The translations under genes and the position numbers were made by a program. Below, piece by piece: positions 1 to 61,098 of a stretch of DNA of 64,000 bases. Below the pieces are notes generated by a model. It made no database searches and was not told where the DNA came from. It worked only from the letters and a program-made list of their open reading frames with translations. The stretch lies in the IMG/VR virus record IMGVR_UViG_3300020050_007888, positions 7,554 to 71,553 of that record; one strand, written 5' to 3'. The DNA comes from a virus. Lineage: Duplodnaviria > Caudoviricetes. How positions within the stretch are numbered: position 1 is the first letter of the stretch; the number at the start of each line of letters is the position of its first letter.

Positions 1-288
1 GAGATGCCTACATTATATTCCGTTAGCGGGAGCGCGGCATTCTATAATAAGTGTTCGCTTGGACTGGTGATTCACAGGGATAGCCAGACTTCGCAGACTA
101 TATTAAGTGTACAAAAGGTAAAGTTTAAGCATTGGGGAGAAAATGGAGAGTGTCGTCTTGCGTGGAACCGTGAGAATGGGCGTTATAATAGCGTGAATCA
201 TTATGATGATGCCAACTGGCTTATAAAAGAACAAATACAAACTAACTTCTATGAAAAAATCGAAGAACTTGGGGATGCTCCCTATTGA
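1..288 (+). CDS. C-terminal fragment of a Twinkle/T7 gp4-like primase-helicase (5' end outside the window)
   Basis: PTLYSVSGSAAFYNKCSLGLVIHRD...VQKVKFKHWGENG resembles the SF4 helicase C-terminal motifs. The frame is open back to position 1. Confidence 0.8.
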   Translation, partial: EMPTLYSVSGSAAFYNKCSLGLVIHRDSQTSQTILSVQKVKFKHWGENGECRLAWNRENGRYNSVNHYDDANWLIKEQIQTNFYEKIEELGDAPY

Positions 289-772
289 AACAACGTATAA
301 TGGAATAAAATTTCGTAGCCGTCTGGAAGCGAGGTGGGCTATGTTTTTTGATATGATTCATGTCAGATGGAATTATGAACCGGAAGGGTTTACTAATGGA
401 GACGAATGTTATTTGCCGGACTTCGTGCTATATAATGTGGCATTAAGGGATGACGCTCTGCCTGTTTATATTGAAATTAAGCCTGAGAGTTTTACTGAAA
501 GTCAATATAAGGAATGGTTTACTAAAAACCTGGTGTTATTTAACGGTACGCCGAAGCAGTTTATTTGGGGAAATTGTGATAGTAGTGGCGGTTTTCAATT
601 GTATCCGTGGTGGGATAATTGCATGAGGATTTGGAAGTGCGTAAAATGCGGAAGGATGAAAATTGAGTTTCATGAAAGAAATTATGACCACTGTGAAAAT
701 GGTTGTGATGGTAGAAATGATGATGCGGGAATGATGCGGGCAGCAAATTTAGCCGAAAGCGCAAGGTTTTAA
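251..772 (+). CDS. PD-(D/E)xK-family nuclease-like protein with a C-terminal Cys cluster
   Basis: YNGIKFRSRLEARWAMFFD...YEPEGF...YLPDF...YIEIKP has PD...ExK spacing; CVKC and CENGC lie near the C-terminus. Confidence 0.7.
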   Translation: MKKSKNLGMLPIETTYNGIKFRSRLEARWAMFFDMIHVRWNYEPEGFTNGDECYLPDFVLYNVALRDDALPVYIEIKPESFTESQYKEWFTKNLVLFNGTPKQFIWGNCDSSGGFQLYPWWDNCMRIWKCVKCGRMKIEFHERNYDHCENGCDGRNDDAGMMRAANLAESARF

Positions 773-825: not shown

Positions 826-996
826 ATGCGAAGAAACACAAAAAAGATGGTAGGCGTACAAGCATGGATTGAGGACACTACATTTACAGAGGCAATGCTG
901 TTAGCTCAGGCAGATGATTTGAGTTTGTCGGCATGGATACGCCGCGCCATCAAGGAGAAGCTGATAAGGGATACGCCGGCGGGGAAGAAGGGATGA
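826..996 (+). CDS. Small ribbon-helix-helix-like DNA-binding protein
   Basis: VGVQAWI...AMLLAQADDLSLSAWIRRAIKEKL shows a strand-helix-helix pattern. ATG 826 follows the promoter and is preferred over 793. The stop overlaps the next start (ATGA). Confidence 0.55.
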   Translation: MRRNTKKMVGVQAWIEDTTFTEAMLLAQADDLSLSAWIRRAIKEKLIRDTPAGKKG

Positions 997-2207
997 TGCA
1001 CTTCGGACTATTTGAGGGTATAGGGGGCTTCTCGTTGGCGGCTCAGTGGATGGGATGGAAAACATATCTTACATCTGAGATTAATCCGTTTTGCAATAAG
1101 GTTTTGGATTATCATTTTCCAGAATCATACAGGCATGGAGATATTCACACATTGAACTATGAAACAATTAATATTGAACTTACAAAACGGTTTGGAACCC
1201 ACTGGAGAAATGACGACATCATCGTTACCGGTGGGTTCCCATAACTATGCCAACCATACAGCGCAGCCGGAAAGCGACTTGGAACGGAAGATGACAGGCA
1301 TCTCTGGCCGGAAATGCTTAGAGCAATTCGAGAGATTCAACCAACCTGGATCGTGGGCGAAAACGTTCGGGGCTTTACTAATTGGAACGGGGGCATGGTA
1401 TTCGACCAGGTGCAGGCTGATTTGGAAGCTCAGGGCTACGAAGTCCTCCCGTTTCTACTTCCAGCTTGTGCCGTCGGCGCACCGCATAGAAGAGACAGGA
1501 TATGGATTGTTGCCTACTCCAATGGCTTGCGAAGGTCACAAGAACATGAGTTGCAGCGATCAGAACTATTTAAGCAATCATGCAAGATCAGGTCTTCTCC
1601 CATCCCCCGTAGCGAGCGATGCGACCACGGGAGCGATAATAGGGAAGAACGATACGTTCAGAGAAACGAAAGGTCTACCGAGGAAGGTGAATCAGAACGG
1701 CAAGGACGGGAGTGTGGGATTAGGGAGGTTGGTTCAACTCCTTCCGACCCCAACCACGGGAGCCGATCACGGGACGCAGTACAAGCAGGGCGGGAGGAGC
1801 CTGAAGAATTTTATGGACCACAACGGTCTCTTACCAACACACAGAGAAGCGGCATCGAGGGGAAATTGCAGCAACAACAGAGGGAAGGGGAATTTAGAAG
1901 ATGCGATAGCGGGTATGTTGCCAACTCCAACGGCCAACTGTCACAAGGGAGGAGCGGTGAGGACAGACCCATCGAGGCAGAGCGACACGTTGGCACACCA
2001 CTTCGCAACGACTACTGGGCAAACTTCCCAACTGTCGCCCCTGTTTGTATGCGAAATGATGAGCTTTCCTTTGGATTATCTGGTATTACCTTTCCAAAAT
2101 GGCGAAACGAAAGCATAAAGGCGTTGGGCAATGCAGTAGTGCCGGCGTTAGTCTACGAAATATTTAAAGCGATTGAAAGTTATGACCCACCACCTACAAG
2201 CAGTTAG
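993..2207 (+). CDS. dcm: C5 cytosine DNA methyltransferase main chain (motifs I-VIII and X), interrupted by an in-frame TAA-CTA at 1242-1247; recoded gene or pseudogene
   Basis: Motif I (LFEGIGGF), then TGGFP-TAA-CTA-CQPYSAAG (motif IV), GENVRG (VI), PHRRDRIWIVA (VIII) and IKALGNAVVP (X). Track ORFs 933..1244 and 1314..2207 are in the same frame. Confidence 0.85.
1159..2118 (+). CDS. Overlapping +1-frame ORF, putative second methylase subunit (target-recognition repeats plus motif IX); true start uncertain (1159, 1210 or 1291)
   Basis: A 319-codon frame inside the dcm gene. It has five (L/M)LP(T/S)P-type repeats and ends QLSPLFVCEMMSFPLDY, a motif-IX-like segment absent from the main frame. 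The layout matches M.EcoHK31I alpha/beta. Confidence 0.75.
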   Translation: MKQLILNLQNGLEPTGEMTTSSLPVGSHNYANHTAQPESDLERKMTGISGRKCLEQFERFNQPGSWAKTFGALLIGTGAWYSTRCRLIWKLRATKSSRFYFQLVPSAHRIEETGYGLLPTPMACEGHKNMSCSDQNYLSNHARSGLLPSPVASDATTGAIIGKNDTFRETKGLPRKVNQNGKDGSVGLGRLVQLLPTPTTGADHGTQYKQGGRSLKNFMDHNGLLPTHREAASRGNCSNNRGKGNLEDAIAGMLPTPTANCHKGGAVRTDPSRQSDTLAHHFATTTGQTSQLSPLFVCEMMSFPLDYLVLPFQNGETKA

Positions 2208-38675: not shown

Positions 38676-40938
38676 TCCTTGCTATCTCAAGATTGTAATT
38701 AAAAAGGGCTGTGAATCTTTCTTCACGGCCTTTTACTCTTATTTGCTCAAGGGCAGATTCACTCTTCAGTTTCTCAAGCAACGCCTTAGCCTCTGTCATC
38801 ATCGCTTCGGTAGCGCGTTTCTCCTGTTCAACAGCTTTCATGTTCTCGCCGTTCATCTGCATGTTGCGATCCTGAAGTGCCATCTGCTCCTGCTTGGCTT
38901 GCTCCTCACGGTACATAATCCACATCTGAGCGTACTTTAACTGACCCCTTTCAAGGCATTGAAGCACGAACATGAAGTCACCGAAACTGATACCGGCTTG
39001 CCCCTGCTTGTTGGCTTTCAAACTATCGTTGGCAACACCTAAGATGATTTCTCTTTGAGTGTCGTCAATGAGCATTTCACAGTTAGTGCTTATCACCTTG
39101 CTTCCAATATCTCCAAAGCTCAGGCGAACGATTTCGGCTATACCTCCATCGCGTTCTACCATCTCTGAAATATCTCCCGATGCGGTACGCAGTTGCCATC
39201 TCAGGCATAGGTTATTAAAGTTGCGGTTCTTGACACGCTTGTAACCGGAAAGGATGGGACGCAATGTATCCATCATGCTTGCCTCGGCGATCTTGGCGAC
39301 TCCTACAAGTCCATCACCTGTAGGCGTAGTGCCATCGGGACCACGACCAATAGCGGTCAGTTCTCCAAGAGTACCAATGTGCATGTTAAAGGTAGCGATG
39401 AACTCATTGAGAATAGGTCCAAGTCCACCTGGCATATTCTCTACCGGTGCTACCTGATTATAAACAGGTCTTCCGTTGGCATCCATCTGCGCCTTCCATA
39501 TCACATCACCCGTAGTTCGATATACCTTGAGCACGTCAAAGTCCTTGCCTCCCATCTTCATGCCCTGCATACTTCCCCACTCCACCTGAATACCAGCGGG
39601 AGCAGCCTTCGCCCAAGCGTTTCTGAACTTCAGAACAGCGATCTGCATGTCGTCAATAGTGGATACGCAACGCGAAGTCAAACTCCTGTCTGTGATACGG
39701 TAGATAGAGTAGCTTGACTTGGGACGGTTCTGTGCATCAAAAATCTGATTGTACTGATAGCCGTAGTCTTTGATGATCTTGGTTCCGATGATCCACTTGC
39801 CTCTGTATCTGCGGGCATACTTATTTGTCTCGTATCGGTTACTCTGCTTCTTCTTATCAACGCCAAAGGGTAGCTTGAATGCTTTCTCCTGACCATCACG
39901 AAGGGTGCGGTACTCGAAAGTATAAGTGTTGAATGATTCAAAGTCCATGTCAAGGACAGGCACTCTGAATAAAGAAAGCCTGCTGTAGTCCTGAACACCA
40001 AAGCGGTTCCATTGTTGGAAAGCGGGGTTGCCAAGTGCTCCGGCATACGCCTTCACGCATTCATTGATTTCTTCATCGGTAAGCCCCAGGTCTTTGAGTT
40101 CGCCCATTGTCATGAACCTGATCTCAGCTACATCGGAAATGTTGGTGAAGGCATTGTCTCTTGTGCTACCTACAATCAGAAACTCAGGGTCAACATACCG
40201 TGACATCGGAATACCACTAACAGTATCAGTATAGTCCTGACAGGCAATCATACCAATATCCACGGCATCTTCATCCATCCGGTTACGAATCTCCTCCCAC
40301 TCGGACATCTTTGCGCTCTTAAACAGGTACTTCTCAAGGGCTACCTCCACAGCAAGTCTGAAGCTCCCCATTGAGGCAAGCATCTCCATCTCTTCAAAGG
40401 ACCGTGGCATGATAGGGAGTGGCGACTGCTCAGGGTCTTCCATATCCTCTATGCCGGCAGCCTCTTTGATTCCTGCAATGAAGTCTGCTTCCTTCATCTG
40501 CACCCAAGTCTTGTACTTGATTAGTTTACGCTCATACTCACTACCTTCATCCAAGCATTGTACGGAAACAGCGTAATCGAATTTACGTAATGTGCCAAGC
40601 ACCTTCTCTCTGTACTTGGTGTAGATAGGTACGTTATCCCAAGAGATGTTGTAGAATCCTGTCCTCTCTCCCGTTTTCGGGTCCAAGGGGTCAAGGATAT
40701 TCATATATTTGGTGGTGGGTTGTCGCCCTTGAGCATACGCTCTGAGGTTAGCGTATTCCTGTGATGCGGAAGCGGGGATATAACTATCGCCTAAAAGCCA
40801 CATGCTGAAAAGGTATTCAGCCTTTCGGATGAACCAATCTTTATTATCTACTTTACTATCAGGGTTGATATTGTCGTCAACATTAGGGAACTCCCGTTTG
40901 TTGTACTTATCGGTAAATTTAAGGTTGTCCAGTTTCAT
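38524..40938 (-). CDS. Portal protein
   Basis: 804 aa directly downstream of terL; LRAYAQGRQP...ISWDNVPIYTKY...SRYVDPE...coiled-coil and Q/P-rich tail, resembling Bacteroidota/crAss-like portals. Confidence 0.8.
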   Translation of the reverse strand: MKLDNLKFTDKYNKREFPNVDDNINPDSKVDNKDWFIRKAEYLFSMWLLGDSYIPASASQEYANLRAYAQGRQPTTKYMNILDPLDPKTGERTGFYNISWDNVPIYTKYREKVLGTLRKFDYAVSVQCLDEGSEYERKLIKYKTWVQMKEADFIAGIKEAAGIEDMEDPEQSPLPIMPRSFEEMEMLASMGSFRLAVEVALEKYLFKSAKMSEWEEIRNRMDEDAVDIGMIACQDYTDTVSGIPMSRYVDPEFLIVGSTRDNAFTNISDVAEIRFMTMGELKDLGLTDEEINECVKAYAGALGNPAFQQWNRFGVQDYSRLSLFRVPVLDMDFESFNTYTFEYRTLRDGQEKAFKLPFGVDKKKQSNRYETNKYARRYRGKWIIGTKIIKDYGYQYNQIFDAQNRPKSSYSIYRITDRSLTSRCVSTIDDMQIAVLKFRNAWAKAAPAGIQVEWGSMQGMKMGGKDFDVLKVYRTTGDVIWKAQMDANGRPVYNQVAPVENMPGGLGPILNEFIATFNMHIGTLGELTAIGRGPDGTTPTGDGLVGVAKIAEASMMDTLRPILSGYKRVKNRNFNNLCLRWQLRTASGDISEMVERDGGIAEIVRLSFGDIGSKVISTNCEMLIDDTQREIILGVANDSLKANKQGQAGISFGDFMFVLQCLERGQLKYAQMWIMYREEQAKQEQMALQDRNMQMNGENMKAVEQEKRATEAMMTEAKALLEKLKSESALEQIRVKGREERFTALFNYNLEIARTTPLDAPASPNEQPSSSQGQIPPRLSEQQAGSPMPAPDALQPEQGAAMMS
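38701..38738. terminator. Hairpin with U-tracts on both strands, inside the portal coding sequence
   Basis: AAAAGGGCTGTGAA-TCTTTC-TTCACGGCCTTTT, 25 nt after the DUF1508 stop. Confidence 0.55.
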
Positions 40939-43900
40939 CTTGAATATGTGTCTCCTTCGTATTTGAAGCGTTGATAGTAATTAAGAATATCGGGTTCGAC
41001 GTTAGTTGGCTCCTCGTATATGAAAGACATGTCCCCGGCACCGATGAGTGCATAACCTGTGGCAACAGACAAGTCATAGTCTTGTAGGTCATCGACAAGT
41101 TCTTTCCACTGGGAGAGTAGTTCATCGTGTTTTTCTCGGAGGGCATGGTGTTCAATATAGGATTGGATGACGGAAAATATCTGCTGAACCTGCTTGACGT
41201 GGGTATTCTCCCCTGGTTCTTTGGCATACTTGCCCGTCATTGGGTCAAATTTATAGTATAAATAGCCTCCATATCCGCGTTGCTGAAAATAGTCTGCAAG
41301 GAAGGTGACGTTCATCTCAGGGTACATCTCGCATCCAAAATAAACGCACATCATAATCATATCCTCACCGTAATCCTCTTTGGTAGGCGGGCGGTTGCTA
41401 TAGGTGCACACAAATCGGTTCGACTCCCATTGAGAAGTGTTCTCTTTGTTTGAATCTACTGCACCATCGTACTTGTAAAATACCGCTCCGGCACCATCCG
41501 AACGCTTTGTCTTCTTGGTCTTATCGAACTTGAAGGGGTCACCTCCGGCTATGAATTTTGTTTTGTTGGCAGGGGACTTCACACCGTTCTCGTCAATATA
41601 CATTCTATTGGCGTGGGAGGGGTCTTTGAAGTTCCAAGTAATGAACCACCTGCCGTTATCACATGGCACCCATCGTACTTTACTATCCGGTCCTGCAATC
41701 CACTCAAAGTTCCCTTGAATCTTATCGGGATTCCCGTTGCGGTAATAGTCCAATCGCTCCTCGATCTTCAGTAAATTAAATATACACTGACGGGCAGAGG
41801 TCTTCCAACAATCGGCGTAGTGAAGAGGATATTGTCTGCACTCCTCGATATATCCTGCGATGTCTCCTGCATCACGTTTTGACTCTCTCTTGTTGATTAG
41901 ATACCGCTCTATTGCAGCTTCATTAGCATTGCCAAACTTGTCAATAAAAGGCTTCTTGGTAATAGGGTCTATCCCTTCCATGCCTTCTTTAGCAGATTGA
42001 AATAAAGTATACAAACCCGATTCGGTCATGCCGTTGGCATCCCTTTTATGATAATCAGAGGCATCGCAAAGTTTCTTAAACATCTTACCACCACCTCTAT
42101 CCATCTCTCCTGTGGTGGAGGTGTTTATCATCTTGCCTTTGCGTGAAGTCCCCCTCTCGATATTGGTAAGGCATGGTATCTGAACTCGGACGCGTTCGTT
42201 GATGTCGATCTCAACAGTATTATGCGTTACAGTGAAATCGCCTAATAAGAACAGGTGGTCTTTATCTAAAGTAAATCCATAGTAATCTCCCTCACCCTTT
42301 TCAACTAATTGAAAACCTACGTGTTGAGGATTTCTTCTGTTTTTATTGGTACTATCTACTGGCATTTTTTTCCGATCAACCTGACAGGGAATTTCAGACA
42401 GGTTATTACCATAAATAGTTATTCTAAAGGCACTCCCTTTAAAACCTGTTGACTTTATAGAAGTTTTTTTCTCCTTTAACTTGGTGTAATATCCCAGAGA
42501 TTGACACAGAAAAACTATTTGTTCAGACAATTCTTTTCTAACCTGAACAATTTCATAATAACCGTCAGATCGGTGTCCATCAGTATCTATTAATCCGGCT
42601 AAAAGTTGAAGCCTAACCGCTCTTGAGTTTATGAGATATTCTTTCGGAATATGTTTATTAGACTCAAGATTGTGATCTCTTAGTAAATTCAGAAAATGAT
42701 TGCTACGTCCTCTTATACCAGTGCTAATATTATAGTTTGTGCTCCCTGATTTGCGTTTATTATGATGCTCGCTTAGATGAAGTCCATAAGGCTTAATAAT
42801 GGTGTCAATTTTATTAAGTATCGCAGTATCTGTATTGCAAATATTTATTGAAGCACAATTTGAACTACCATCGCCAAGCCATACACCCAAAAGATAAGGG
42901 TCAATAGGGGTAGATACAGAAGGAAAATCAATATCCACCCTGTATTGAACTAAGTGTTTTTGGCGCAACTTGCTTAATTGCAAGTAGTCTTTTACGGAAA
43001 TATTAATTACATCTCCTTTCTTAACGCCTTTCCAAAGGTGCATAGACGTTGCGCTTTTCAAACTTAATATGTGATGTTGATTACATCCCCATGAATCTCC
43101 TTTATTGGGAATAACATCATACATTGTATCTCTTCCTCGGCCCAAAGACAGAACTGTTCTTGAAGTGCTATCAGGACCCATCACAAGGTCACCAACTACA
43201 ATATCTTGAACCATTTTTACGCTTCCGTCAAACATTAAAATAGGCGTATTTATACTGAAACATTTCCCAGGCTCATCGTTATGTATCAACCACCTCTTTG
43301 TACCATCATAAGAAGTCACTCCTGAGTCTTTGTAATCAATAAAACTATTCAGTGCAGGCTGATTCCTGTCGAGGTTCTGCTTGGAGGTAGGCGAAAAGAA
43401 CCTGATCTCCTTCCATGTATTGTTTCCTGAGTCGGTGACGGGCTGAAAGAAAAACGGGACGGTTCGGAACGGCTCATAGGTGTTCATAAAATGAACCTCT
43501 TCGGCATGTTTCTCATCCTTACTTTGCAGTCCGGCGGTGAAGTAGGGTTGGGACGAGGCACAGTCGGCTTTTATCCCGCAAACTTTTATCGTAGCCCCTA
43601 CCCTTCGAGGCTTTGGGTTGTTGAATCCAAAACAGTTGTCGTCTTCATAAACCATGTGCCAAAACCAAAACCACCGGCGGTCATAGTTCCTGTAGTCGGG
43701 AGGCGCACCATCTATGGGCCACCATTGGAGTTGCCAGTAGTGATGCCCTGTTATCATCGTCGGCACCCCATTGTTAAAAAACCAAAACCCATTCTCTCTT
43801 CGCTCCCACTCTTTCTCTATGTAGTCAATCTCCTCACGGTAATAGTCAGAGTCTTTCTCCAAAATCTTCATCTTCAGGCGGGGAGTAAGCTCATTGCCCT

Positions 43901-44111
43901 CCTCGTCCTTCTGCATGTCATTAATCTTCTGCAACTTAGCAGGTAGTGGCTTATGCCTCCAAAACTGTTCATGCGGTGGCAGTCCGTAGCCTTCTATCGT
44001 TTCAAGCGGTGGAGGATCAGGAGGCCGGTATTCTATTGGAATAAGGTCTTTATCCTCGTTCCACACCATCACCTCTTCATGAGGCTTGTAAGACTTAATG
44101 TGCTTTGACAT
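40935..44111 (-). CDS. terL: Terminase large subunit containing an intein
   Basis: PKPRRVGAT (Walker A region), HNDEPGK (Walker B region), INTSTTGEM, AGGDPF...DGAG...YPEMN...YDLSVA (RNase H-like nuclease). Confidence 0.9.
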   Translation of the reverse strand: MSKHIKSYKPHEEVMVWNEDKDLIPIEYRPPDPPPLETIEGYGLPPHEQFWRHKPLPAKLQKINDMQKDEEGNELTPRLKMKILEKDSDYYREEIDYIEKEWERRENGFWFFNNGVPTMITGHHYWQLQWWPIDGAPPDYRNYDRRWFWFWHMVYEDDNCFGFNNPKPRRVGATIKVCGIKADCASSQPYFTAGLQSKDEKHAEEVHFMNTYEPFRTVPFFFQPVTDSGNNTWKEIRFFSPTSKQNLDRNQPALNSFIDYKDSGVTSYDGTKRWLIHNDEPGKCFSINTPILMFDGSVKMVQDIVVGDLVMGPDSTSRTVLSLGRGRDTMYDVIPNKGDSWGCNQHHILSLKSATSMHLWKGVKKGDVINISVKDYLQLSKLRQKHLVQYRVDIDFPSVSTPIDPYLLGVWLGDGSSNCASINICNTDTAILNKIDTIIKPYGLHLSEHHNKRKSGSTNYNISTGIRGRSNHFLNLLRDHNLESNKHIPKEYLINSRAVRLQLLAGLIDTDGHRSDGYYEIVQVRKELSEQIVFLCQSLGYYTKLKEKKTSIKSTGFKGSAFRITIYGNNLSEIPCQVDRKKMPVDSTNKNRRNPQHVGFQLVEKGEGDYYGFTLDKDHLFLLGDFTVTHNTVEIDINERVRVQIPCLTNIERGTSRKGKMINTSTTGEMDRGGGKMFKKLCDASDYHKRDANGMTESGLYTLFQSAKEGMEGIDPITKKPFIDKFGNANEAAIERYLINKRESKRDAGDIAGYIEECRQYPLHYADCWKTSARQCIFNLLKIEERLDYYRNGNPDKIQGNFEWIAGPDSKVRWVPCDNGRWFITWNFKDPSHANRMYIDENGVKSPANKTKFIAGGDPFKFDKTKKTKRSDGAGAVFYKYDGAVDSNKENTSQWESNRFVCTYSNRPPTKEDYGEDMIMMCVYFGCEMYPEMNVTFLADYFQQRGYGGYLYYKFDPMTGKYAKEPGENTHVKQVQQIFSVIQSYIEHHALREKHDELLSQWKELVDDLQDYDLSVATGYALIGAGDMSFIYEEPTNVEPDILNYYQRFKYEGDTYSR
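42219..43262 (-). mobile_element. Intein of 348 aa with a LAGLIDADG homing endonuclease
   Basis: Starts CFSINTPILMFDG after DEPGK and ends YGFTLDKDHLFLLGDFTVTHN before Thr; internal LLGVWLGDGS and LLAGLIDTDG; visibly AT-richer than its flanks. Confidence 0.93.
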
Positions 44112-44119
44112 TATCAGCT

Positions 44120-44887
44120 TTATAATGATAATTGGTATTGGCTTTTATAAATAACCCATCGTTTTTCTTGGTCATTATAGTGCTCTTTATCTATTTCTAT
44201 TCCAACAAAATCATTAACACCATATCTATCTGCTGAAATACGACTACTCCCGCTACCTAAATGTGTGTCAATAACTTTCATGCCCTTAAATCCAAATTCT
44301 AAAAAAATCTTATCATATAGTAAAGTAGGTTTATGGCAAGGATGTATGCGTTTTTCGTTTAATTTTTTATTCCCTTGCTGTGTCATTGGTTCGCTTAGAC
44401 TTTTTGCTTGGCACATTCCAGCCCATAATAAAGGCAATTCCATTTCGTAATCAATCATTGAGCAATAAGCCAATTCATATTTTTTGAAACTCATGCCTTC
44501 AGCAACACCTTTGTTCCATTTTATTCTGCCATTCCCTACGCCAATCCAATTCACATATTCAATTCCAAATATTATCTGATGCTTTGAAATCCTTTTTAAT
44601 TCATCAAAATATTCTTGTGGAGGCGGTTCTTTATCCCAATCTTTAAAATTGTGTACTTTTTTATTTGTATTTCCATTTAATCGACTTCCATTTTTTTGCC
44701 TTACAGTTGTTTTCACTTCTTTTAAGAAAGCCATGTTTGCCACATCTATCCCATAAGGAACATCGCATACTGCTAAATCAAAGTAGTTGTCTGGAAATCT
44801 TGGTAAAATATTTTTATAGTCATCATTAAAAACAACGCTACGACTAATCGGGTCTAAGTTAATGTAGGTGGGCTGTGCTTGTATCAT
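44120..44887 (-). CDS. N6-adenine/N4-cytosine DNA methyltransferase (beta-class order)
   Basis: FDLAVCDVPYG (motif IV variant) precedes HPCHKP and VIDTHLGSGSS (motif I). Confidence 0.85.
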   Translation of the reverse strand: MIQAQPTYINLDPISRSVVFNDDYKNILPRFPDNYFDLAVCDVPYGIDVANMAFLKEVKTTVRQKNGSRLNGNTNKKVHNFKDWDKEPPPQEYFDELKRISKHQIIFGIEYVNWIGVGNGRIKWNKGVAEGMSFKKYELAYCSMIDYEMELPLLWAGMCQAKSLSEPMTQQGNKKLNEKRIHPCHKPTLLYDKIFLEFGFKGMKVIDTHLGSGSSRISADRYGVNDFVGIEIDKEHYNDQEKRWVIYKSQYQLSL

Positions 44888-50349: not shown

Positions 50350-50571
50350 ATGAAAAAAAAGAATTACGTGCATATTGCAGCGGGCGACTATCCGGCATTT
50401 CGGGTAGCGGATGAGCAGATGCACAAGATTGAGAGAATAAAAGCTCACGGTGGAGGTCGTAGTGCTGCCTCCATAGTTCGGGAGGCTATTGATAGTTTAT
50501 ATGAAAAATACGAGGTCGAAATGACCGATAAAACAAAGAGGATAAAATGGACGAGAAAACAAACAGCGTAG
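50350..50571 (+). CDS. Ribbon-helix-helix-like regulator
   Basis: PAFRVADEQMHKIERIKAHGGGRSAASIVREAIDSL; first gene of the recombination operon. Confidence 0.55.
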   Translation: MKKKNYVHIAAGDYPAFRVADEQMHKIERIKAHGGGRSAASIVREAIDSLYEKYEVEMTDKTKRIKWTRKQTA

Positions 50572-51476
50572 CGGTAGCGCAACAATCAGTAGTAACCGCC
50601 AAATCTTTATTCGCAAGGGACGAAGTAAAGAAAAAGTTCGAGGAAATGATGGGTAAGCGTTCCGCATCATTCATCACATCTGTATTGCAGATTGTGGCAT
50701 CAAACAATTTACTTGCAAAGGCAGAACCTAACTCAGTTTATCAGGCTGCGGCTATGGCTGCAACACTTGACTTGCCGCTAAACAACTCGCTCGGCTTTGC
50801 TTACATCGTGCCGTATAACCAAAAGTACAAGGACGCAAGCGGGCAGTGGCAGACTAAACAGGTAGCGCAGTTCCAGTTGGGGTACAAAGGCTACATTCAA
50901 CTTGCGCAGCGTTCCGGACAATTCAAAACCCTTGCATCATGCCCGATCTATGACGGACAGATTGTAGAGCAAAATCCACTTACCGGATATGTGTTTGATT
51001 TTACAAAACCATCTACCGGCAAAATAGTAGGTTACGCTGCATACTTTGAACTGGTGAACGGATTTCAGAAGATGATGTACATGAGTATCGAAGAAATGAA
51101 AGCTCACGGTGCGAAGTATTCAAAGACGTTTAGCAACGACAAGGGACTTTGGAATACCGACTTTGACGCTATGGCGAACAAGACTATTTTAAAACTCTTA
51201 CTCTCTAAATATGCACCACTATCTGTAGAGTTGCAGAATGCTGTTGTAGCAGATCAATCTACTGTCACGAATCATGAGACCGTTGAAGTTGAATACGTGG
51301 ACAACGAACCAACGGAAGTAGACAAGGCAGAGGAAAGAATGCAGTTATTGATAAATGACTGCACGACACTTGAAGAGTTGAACGCTCTTAACAAGGATAT
51401 TCCTGCTTCTTTACGTGGAATCTTCCAACAAAAAGTAAGCGAACTTTCGCCTGTTGCACAAGCAAATGCAAAATAA
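50547..51476 (+). CDS. recT: RecT/Redbeta-family single-strand annealing protein
   Basis: AAMAATLDLPLNNSLGFAYIVPY...AQFQLGYKGYIQLAQRSGQF...GYAAYFEL...MANKTILK. Confidence 0.92.
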   Translation: MDEKTNSVAVAQQSVVTAKSLFARDEVKKKFEEMMGKRSASFITSVLQIVASNNLLAKAEPNSVYQAAAMAATLDLPLNNSLGFAYIVPYNQKYKDASGQWQTKQVAQFQLGYKGYIQLAQRSGQFKTLASCPIYDGQIVEQNPLTGYVFDFTKPSTGKIVGYAAYFELVNGFQKMMYMSIEEMKAHGAKYSKTFSNDKGLWNTDFDAMANKTILKLLLSKYAPLSVELQNAVVADQSTVTNHETVEVEYVDNEPTEVDKAEERMQLLINDCTTLEELNALNKDIPASLRGIFQQKVSELSPVAQANAK

Positions 51477-52173
51477 TATCCTATTCAGGTGTTCTTCTCT
51501 CGGTCACATCATGACTGAGCCGAAAGTAAAAACAGAGACTATTTCTGAATCTGCAAAGGCGCACCTCATTGACGTATTCGTTGCTGAAAAGTACGGAAGG
51601 CGTTCGGATATTGGCAACCGTTATACGATCAAAGGAACACTTGTAGAAGAAGATTCTATGACTTTGTTTAGTCGTGTAACAAAGAGGTTCTACGTGAAGA
51701 ATGAGGAAAGTTTGGCAAACGACTACATTAAAGGAACACCGGACATCATCACCTCTTTAGAAATAGAGGATATGGAGATTGTTGACATAAAATCATCATG
51801 GGACATCTTCACCTATATGCGGGCTAAGTTTAAGAATGACATCAAGAAACTTTACTATTGGCAGTTGCAGGGCTACATGGCGTTGACCGGAGCTAAAAAA
51901 GCCCGACTTGCTTACTGCCTTGTAAATACTCCCGATCAACTTCTTGAAGATGAGAAACGCAAACTCTGGTATAAGATCGGACAGCCGGATAAAGAGTCTC
52001 CAATGTGGCTTGATGCGGTTCAGGAGATTGAAATGTCATGTATCTATGATGATATTCCTATGCACGAAAGGTTGCATCAAATATCATTCGAGCGTAACGA
52101 TGCGGATATTGAGAAACTTTACAACAAGGTGCTACAGTGTCGTGAATGGATGAACGCAAATCTCTACAAATAA
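51466..52173 (+). CDS. YqaJ/lambda-exonuclease-like nuclease
   Basis: FRCSSLG...KGTLVEE...KGTPDII...VDIKSSWD...YYWQLQGYMALTG; adjacent to recT. Confidence 0.85.
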   Translation: MQNNILFRCSSLGHIMTEPKVKTETISESAKAHLIDVFVAEKYGRRSDIGNRYTIKGTLVEEDSMTLFSRVTKRFYVKNEESLANDYIKGTPDIITSLEIEDMEIVDIKSSWDIFTYMRAKFKNDIKKLYYWQLQGYMALTGAKKARLAYCLVNTPDQLLEDEKRKLWYKIGQPDKESPMWLDAVQEIEMSCIYDDIPMHERLHQISFERNDADIEKLYNKVLQCREWMNANLYK

Positions 52174-59398: not shown

Positions 59399-60295
59399 CC
59401 TCTATAAGTTTTAACACTCCCATCAGGAAGCACCGTCCTGCTCACCCCCTTCGCTATCGGGAGAACACCTGTCTGATCGTAGTCGTTGAAGTACTTGCAC
59501 CGGGCTGATCTGATAGCCTGTATCAGATTACGGTCGTGGAAGGTGCGGTTCCACTTGGTGGTGCTTAGGTTTCTGTTCATGATGTTGTAGTATTAACGGA
59601 TAGTCCTTGTCGAATTTGTTCTATTTGCGCATCAGATAGCATCCCAATTGCCCCCTCTACAATGTCTTTAAAATCTTTCATTTCTAAAACAAGAAGTTGA
59701 ACTTTAAATAAATTGTAGTCGGTAAATTTCTCTTCAACAATTGCTTTTGGGTGTTCCTTCATTATTTTATCAGACAGTTGAATCACCATCTCCCTTACTG
59801 CCATTGCCTCTACTTCCTCTTTTGAAATCCTCATATTATAAAGGGTTTCGTTAGTTATTTTCCATTGTCCTTTATACAATGAGTTACCTAACTTAAATCT
59901 CTGAAGTAGTTTGTTTATGTAGTCCATAGTTGCGGTTCATTTGATTAGTAGTATTTCTTCGTTGATGCCGTCCCAGAATGTACTATCAGGGATATGTTTT
60001 GATTGCTCCAAACTAAACGACATAATAATGCTCTCGTGATTATCAAGACAATGGGACAAGTGTCGTGGACGTTCAAATTCAATATTCTCCACAATCATCT
60101 CCCGTATCGGGGATGGGATGTGACGTAGTTTTTGTTTTAGGGTTTTCATGGTTGATTCATTTTTATAACAGATTCGACAACTGTTTTTATTAGTTCGATG
60201 GCATACTTACTATTGTCCACATAATTTAGATCGCATTGTTTAAATGGAAGTTCCACCTCAATCTCCCTGCTTCCGTGTGTTACTTTTATTTTCAT
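59395..60295 (-). other. Small hypothetical genes (59395-59580, 59577-59927, 59937-60149, and unlisted 60146-60295)
   Basis: Coupled minus-strand ORFs; 60146-60295 (MKIKVTHGSREIEVEL...) is ATGA-coupled at both ends. Confidence 0.5.
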
Positions 60296-61098
60296 GGTTT
60301 CTTCTCTAAGTAATCTTTAAATACTTCTTCTATCGGCTTAGGCTTCCATCCCACTCTATGCACCGCCATCGGGTACCACTTCTTACCGGATGGCATCATC
60401 TGTCCGTTGCTGTTGAGTACTTCCGCAATCTGCTTCATGCTCTTGCCCTCCTCCTTCATGCGAACGATTAGCTGACGTGTAGAGTAGTCAAACTTCATTG
60501 CCTGCTCCTTCCTCGCCTCCCCTCCTAAGAGGTGGTTGTCGCTTACATCAAGCACTTCCTTGAGCTTCTTGCTCTGAGCAGGCTCCCACCCTCTTGCTCT
60601 TTTAGCTGCGAGGGCTGCCTTAATCCTTCCCCTGATGATTCCAAGCTCATACTCTGCGAACATAGCCATGATACCGAACATAAACAGATTCATGCCAGGG
60701 ATGTCACAGCATACCAAATCATAGGCGTTGTTCCTTACCTTCATCGCAAACTCCGTATCTCTTGCAAGTCTGTCGAGCTTCGCTGTTATCAGTATAGCCT
60801 TCTCGGTCTTGCTCAGTAGCACCGCTTCCTCTAACTTCTTGCGGGTTCTACGGCTGCCGGACTCTACCTCTACAAACTCAGCTATAATCTCGGCATCCTT
60901 CACGTATGATGCTATGATCGCCCGCTGTGCCTCTATGCCTAATCCTTGCGCCCCTTGCTTCTTGGTGGAGACACGGAGGTAGGCAATGTATCGAGGCGGT
61001 CGATCTTTTTCTGAAGCTGGCGTATGTACGCCCTGTCCCTGCTGTTGAGTTGTTCGCGGATGTTGATCTCTATCACCAACTCTTTGATCTGATTCCAT
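60292..61098 (-). CDS. Serine recombinase (resolvase/invertase family) with a C-terminal DNA-binding region; start uncertain
   Basis: YIAYLRVSTKKQ (catalytic Ser), EVESG, KLDRLARD, AEYELGIIRGRIKAAL, and IAEVLN...GKKW...VHR. Confidence 0.9.
   Translation of the reverse strand: MESDQRVGDRDQHPRTTQQQGQGVHTPASEKDRPPRYIAYLRVSTKKQGAQGLGIEAQRAIIASYVKDAEIIAEFVEVESGSRRTRKKLEEAVLLSKTEKAILITAKLDRLARDTEFAMKVRNNAYDLVCCDIPGMNLFMFGIMAMFAEYELGIIRGRIKAALAAKRARGWEPAQSKKLKEVLDVSDNHLLGGEARKEQAMKFDYSTRQLIVRMKEEGKSMKQIAEVLNSNGQMMPSGKKWYPMAVHRVGWKPKPIEEVFKDYLEKKP

Follow-up and report, generated by a model that had tools for sequence, protein, structure and literature searches.

A probable translational hop over an in-frame stop at the active site of a phage C5 methylase, and its link to HNH nucleases

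The C5 methylase frame at 993–2207 (+ strand) contains a single in-frame stop, placed between the catalytic Pro and the catalytic Cys. The question is whether this gene is broken, or whether its two halves are still joined into one enzyme, and if so how. The window analyzed is a stretch of 64,000 nucleotides, bases 7554–71553 of a single 71,553-base contig. The phage genome (71.5 kb) carries capsid, terminase and RecT-like genes, and its host group is probably Bacteroidota.

The first-pass annotation had read TAA CTA between the two catalytic residues with both halves in one frame, and re-reading of the junction confirmed this: GGT GGG TTC CCA (1230–1241), TAA (1242–1244) and CTA (1245–1247), then TGC CAA CCA TAC. 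Both halves match Pfam DNA_methylase. The N half of the alpha chain (993–1241, +; 83 aa) runs through motifs I–III to GGFP (E 1e-5), and the C half (1248–2207, +; E 8.7e-28) has the catalytic Cys, encoded by the putative resume codon TGC, and motifs VI, VIII and X, with ENV, RxR and GNAVVP all retained. An alternative reading of the insert as AACT flanked by AT..AT was dropped, as this pattern is not conserved in relatives.

A +1 ORF overlaps the alpha chain at 1159–2118 (+, start ATG 1159 or 1210), and as previously claimed it is open across the 6 nt of the insert. It matches phrog_1008 DNA methyltransferase (E 1.7e-20) and resembles a beta chain. In M.EcoHK31I, too, the alpha gene contains the beta chain in another frame (PMC2836561). 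Judged by its motifs (I, IV, VI, VIII and X in alpha), the methylase of the window is an EcoHK31I-like C5 methylase with overlapping alpha and beta chains. The overlap fits the known layout and so is nothing unusual; what stands out is the insert, and an interrupted motif IV is not described for M.EcoHK31I.

The insert is not confined to the window. A search in which the six positions separating the Pro and Cys codons were left free found 89 loci, 77 in IMG/VR and 12 in GTDB. In all of these the stop comes first (77/77 viral, 12/12 GTDB; TAA, TAG and TGA are all used), which is far beyond chance, and 88 of the 89 inserts end in a YYN codon. Stop plus one codon thus recurs in homologues aligned at this junction. 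When only the upstream side was fixed in the pattern, eight stops were found, and YYN and CQP came after every one of them; conservation on the downstream side is therefore no mere product of the search filter. A search for 3-nt inserts at the junction found none. A pattern for 6-nt stop inserts with Gln and then a purine-initial codon gave zero matches; it was too strict, and such genes were recovered by the HNH search described below. A set of candidate 25-nt inserts proved to be chance matches upstream of normal genes.

Among the 80 closest relatives by C half, the insert was absent in 72 and present in 6. The junction CCA TAA CTA TGC, identical to that of the window, occurs in other samples (L005, L062, L076), and wastewater contigs of related phages have CCG TAG CTA at the same junction with no gap listed. 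A single contig carries two methylase copies (L051, L059), one with the insert and one without. Carriers in GTDB include Bacillota, Bacteroidota and CPR bins as well as the isolate Muriventricola aceti, though a bin made up of small contigs is no proof of the host. Because the window is one metagenomic contig, and a search for a same-strain contig across its junction found none, the window's own bases rest on that contig and the insert could be an assembly error. The recurrence in more than 120 distinct sequences from many samples largely refutes this, and the artefact once proposed as an option has been rejected; such an error now has almost no probability.

Inserts at the junction have lengths of 6, 7, 8, 9, 10, 12 or 15 nt, starting with a stop and ending next to the Cys codon. 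Many of the longer ones contain two stops, and 19 break the frame. The last codon of the insert is YYN in 117 of 122 sequences and 71 of 75 junction types; the five non-YYN codons all follow CCG, and each keeps two exact matches to it. YYN codons would be those readable by a GG anticodon pair through Watson-Crick or G.U pairing. Stop-codon readthrough to give GGFP-X-L-CQ is highly unlikely. Inserts of 6 nt keep the frame, and the codon between stop and Cys is often Pro, as readthrough would allow, but none of the 89 two-codon inserts is all sense, and double stops and frame-breaking inserts occur. The use of all three stops argues against codon reassignment, and the window has zero tRNA genes, hence no suppressor tRNA.

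We consider that the insert is a programmed short translational bypass, or stop-hop, with a probability of roughly 78% as judged from the sequences. With peptidyl-tRNA-Pro on the putative take-off codon CCA (1239–1241, +; preceded by GGG TTC) and TAA (1242–1244, +; interchanged with TAG and TGA in relatives) in the A site, Phe-Pro would slow termination. Part of the ribosomes would unpair, slide 6 nt, re-pair at the putative landing codon CTA (1245–1247, +) and resume at TGC, yielding the normal GGFP-CQPY active site, while the remaining ribosomes would stop at 83 aa. The landing site would be the first codon pairable with tRNA-Pro. Work on pheL has shown that Phe-Pro-stop hinders release and weakens pairing in the P site (PMC3082878). 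Three features of bypassing were found in the inserts: the stop lies directly 3' of the take-off codon (89/89); the landing codon is pairable with the take-off tRNA and lies directly 5' of the resume codon; and the gap length is independent of frame (4–15 nt, 19 non-triplet). In the window the CCA to CTA pair is imperfect, in the YYN class by wobble only, with position 2 a G.U pair with tRNA-Pro.

Variation among the inserts also fits a re-pairing rule. Landing codons depart from the take-off codon at positions 1–2 by 35 transitions and 4 transversions, against 19 and 20 at position 3 (p 1.6e-4), and the excess of transitions exceeds mutation bias. Mapped on the tree, the inserts show at least 31 changes of stop identity, 38 of the landing dinucleotide and 21 of length. 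Landing positions also overlap the beta frame, which may add a constraint.

The most direct evidence comes from HNH-methylase fusions whose stop is displaced from the Pro by one or two codons. Here the last insert codon tracks the new take-off codon: CAG|TAA|CAG, CAA|TGA|CGG, TGC|TGA|TGC, TGT|TAGC (4 nt) and TTC|TGA CTAC GTC (10 nt). Skipping each of these inserts restores GFPCQ or GSPCQ. This co-variation is predicted by bypassing and not by readthrough, a fixed splice site or a +1 slip. Of the options that the first-pass annotation had offered, the two-codon hop is thus strongly supported, by this co-variation and by the landing rule, and readthrough is not, given the double stops and the lack of sense inserts. 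In one further HNH-linked gene, L283, AGA replaces the stop, possibly acting as a slow sense codon.

At take-off, GGS-TTC-CCG is favored, which may be a signal or merely the conversion tract of the element, and CCC is avoided (2/71, versus 21/72 in controls). The latter bears on a +1 slip at CCA_U, by which the N half would continue into the beta frame. A +1 shift is known at CCC_UGA (PMC5009743), but slip-prone CCC is the codon avoided and the fusion would be without the catalytic Cys, so the slip at CCA_T suggested earlier is disfavored and has as little claim as an assembly error. No support was obtained for an RNA hairpin at the junction or on either side of it; junctions are less structured than controls (folding z +0.63 versus −0.13).

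Removal of the insert at the RNA or DNA level, by a micro-intron, slippage or excision, would likewise restore PC. However, the ends are not fixed, an exact repeat is absent in most members, no conserved structure is present, and removal gives no reason for an in-frame stop. We regard it as very improbable. Against the hop itself stand the non-YYN landings, a sense codon before the stop (three junction types), the lack of a hairpin, the wobble pair, and short C halves in some genes. The sense-codon cases are the Pro-X-stop-Pro junctions of L263, L293 and L335 (X = Arg, Gln or Ser), which do not suit a simple take-off from the codon that precedes the stop.

Alternatively, the methylase could be dead or decaying, broken by an HNH element, with the matched codon a duplication made on insertion and no hop. 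The window has lost its HNH, exact codon repeats in some members resemble duplications, and some insert genes have short C halves. Selection argues otherwise. Pooled dN/dS in the window clade was 0.09 for motifs I–III, where there is no overlap, and 0.22 for motifs IV–VIII, compared with 0.13 and 0.17 in insert-free genes. Between the window and its nearest relatives pN was 0.10–0.27 and pS 0.45–0.93 (0.19–0.27 and 0.67–0.93 in the N half). The calculation on both sides of the junction that had been called for thus shows purifying selection on both halves, though very recent decay of the window copy alone is still compatible with it. In addition, the stop changes identity yet remains a stop, the landing-codon spectrum is unlike free drift, and HNH genes of the window clade have their own stop, so they do not need that of the methylase. 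A strict motif filter was passed by 75 of 105 insert C halves and 69 of 71 controls; the filter itself caused most of the failures, and about eleven insert genes (about a tenth) have short C halves. Decay is an unlikely explanation overall.

Termination followed by re-initiation, giving a split enzyme, or a stop whose chief role is translational coupling to the beta chain, is quite unlikely as well. Split methylases exist, CTG or TTG stands at the landing position in some cases, and a beta-frame ATG or GTG shares bases with the stop in several inserts of 7 and 10 nt. Against this, none of CTA, CCN and TCN is a start codon, downstream of the stop no Met is reached until after the catalytic Cys, and insert-free relatives keep beta without a stop. 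Coupling to beta could be an added role of the stop and not its main one. In L184, L194, L275, L281 and L284, which have 7- or 10-nt inserts, the stop overlaps the beta-frame ATG (ATGA or TAATG), and this suggests translational coupling. The idea that frame-breaking inserts occur only where there is no beta ORF proved wrong, as beta often starts at or after the insert.

What the insert is for is suggested by the neighboring genes. An HTH-HNH domain lies in frame between motifs III and IV in 29 of 108 insert genes and in none of 87 insert-free genes; most of these domains have their own ATG plus a ribosome-binding or promoter-like site. When the search was anchored on the HNH, nearly all methylase-linked copies bore the insert, and the HNH-adjacent methylases without it have a non-GGFP motif IV (e.g. 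AGTPCQ, GSAPCQ). Among 150 representatives (50% identity), a manual count found 41 methylase-HNH fusions that end at motif IV and none that continue as an intact methylase. Overall an HNH adjoins 63 of 103 insert genes and 0 of 65 controls (Fisher p 5e-19, a value inflated by relatedness; on independent tree pairs the association was not significant, with too few pairs). In L027/L260, L262 and L265 the HNH lies in a different frame inside an open methylase N half, and in L260 it is fused to the beta chain, with long dual coding. Neither HNH matched a cultured phage in INPHARED over most of its length, nor did the upstream HNH of the window clade at E 1e-15, and a structure search in PDB gave no match.

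In the window clade the HNH takes a second form, a free-standing HTH-HNH_3 gene directly upstream of the methylase with its own stop. Of the clade's insert genes, 42 could be assessed, and 31 of them have it, including those of the nearest relatives, L042 and L021. Two clade members, L131 and L146, lack both insert and HNH and have the control-type GGA codon before Phe. The window genome has no HNH gene beside its methylase. It does have the element TAnnTTTG (814–821, +), which we take to be a Bacteroidota-type promoter; in 19 of 28 relatives it stands directly before the HNH ATG. The best reading is that the window phage kept insert and promoter element and lost the nuclease. The slot of the upstream HNH gene is occupied by a 56-aa ORF (826–996, +) whose stop overlaps the methylase start (ATGA). 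By eye it is ribbon-helix-helix-like, and it follows the promoter element from which relatives would express the HNH; a Pfam search with it gave no match.

The insert therefore most likely belongs, on this sequence evidence, to an HNH homing-endonuclease element. It would break the conserved motif IV DNA target of the HNH with the protein unchanged, since translation would erase the mark. By analogy with the MobA element of phage T4, the insert is probably a self-immunity mark that protects motif IV DNA from the nuclease, and this suits the gene neighborhood better than the throttling of methylase output proposed earlier. The suggestion of a mobile element as the source of the insert thus held up in its tie to the HNH, and failed as an excision scar or recent inactivation, the insert being a maintained cassette. 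If this is true, homing nucleases have one more means of residing within or next to conserved genes, in addition to introns, inteins and gene splitting.

To our knowledge, natural bypassing is known from very few systems. The closest is T4 gene 60 with MobA, where the bypass insert prevents cleavage by its own nuclease and persists once that nuclease is lost (bioRxiv 10.1101/2022.08.31.505936). The methylase inserts share with it a take-off codon, stop and matching landing codon, an HNH beside the interrupted gene, and a bypass that survives nuclease loss. They differ in gap (50 nt in gene 60, 4–15 nt here and 6 in the window), in take-off codon (Gly versus Pro), in the gene interrupted (a topoisomerase gene versus a C5 methylase active site), in the take-off stem-loop, for which no counterpart was found, in their wobble-matched landing, and in having two unrelated HNH domains in several layouts. 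They work like gene 60/MobA but are not members of that family. Synthetic E. coli stop-hops, reviewed in PMC5009743, likewise decode nine nucleotides that include a stop as a single amino acid; the methylase inserts are natural and conserved, and that 2016 review knew of no natural in-frame stop-hop. The terminase bypass of Streptomyces phage Hau3 (PMC10732093) and the Magnusiomyces mitochondrial byps are also short inserts skipped at a slow A-site codon, but there the slow codon is a sense codon, rare or unused, accompanied by predicted structure, and the Hau3 paper mentions no homing nuclease. Our literature search found no paper describing an HNH-linked methylase stop-hop insert.

The balance is even on a broader proposal: that these inserts form a widespread natural family of minimal, structure-free stop-hops (4–15 nt) with wobble-only landing in several bacterial phyla, which lets an HNH mark the methylase active site as self with no change of protein and, once the nuclease is lost, stays on as a control of methylase output at translation. 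Phage methylases annotated as truncated ORFs that end in GGFP may in many cases be active after all. The more than 120 natural variants, which differ in stop, gap length and landing codon, amount to a set of mutants already at hand for working out how peptidyl-tRNA re-pairs.

Several other genes in the window were observed. An ORF at 251–772 (+), two genes upstream of the methylase, has a weak nuclease-like match to phrog_945 (E 9e-4) and is not an HNH. The region 50547–52173 (+) holds a RecT gene plus an unclassified neighbor, and 60292–61098 (−) encodes a serine recombinase. An N6/N4 methylase (44120–44887, −) is uninterrupted. Near it, a large terminase-like gene (40935–44111, −) contains an intein bearing a LAGLIDADG-type homing endonuclease (Pfam Hint, Hom_end), a second homing element of this phage.
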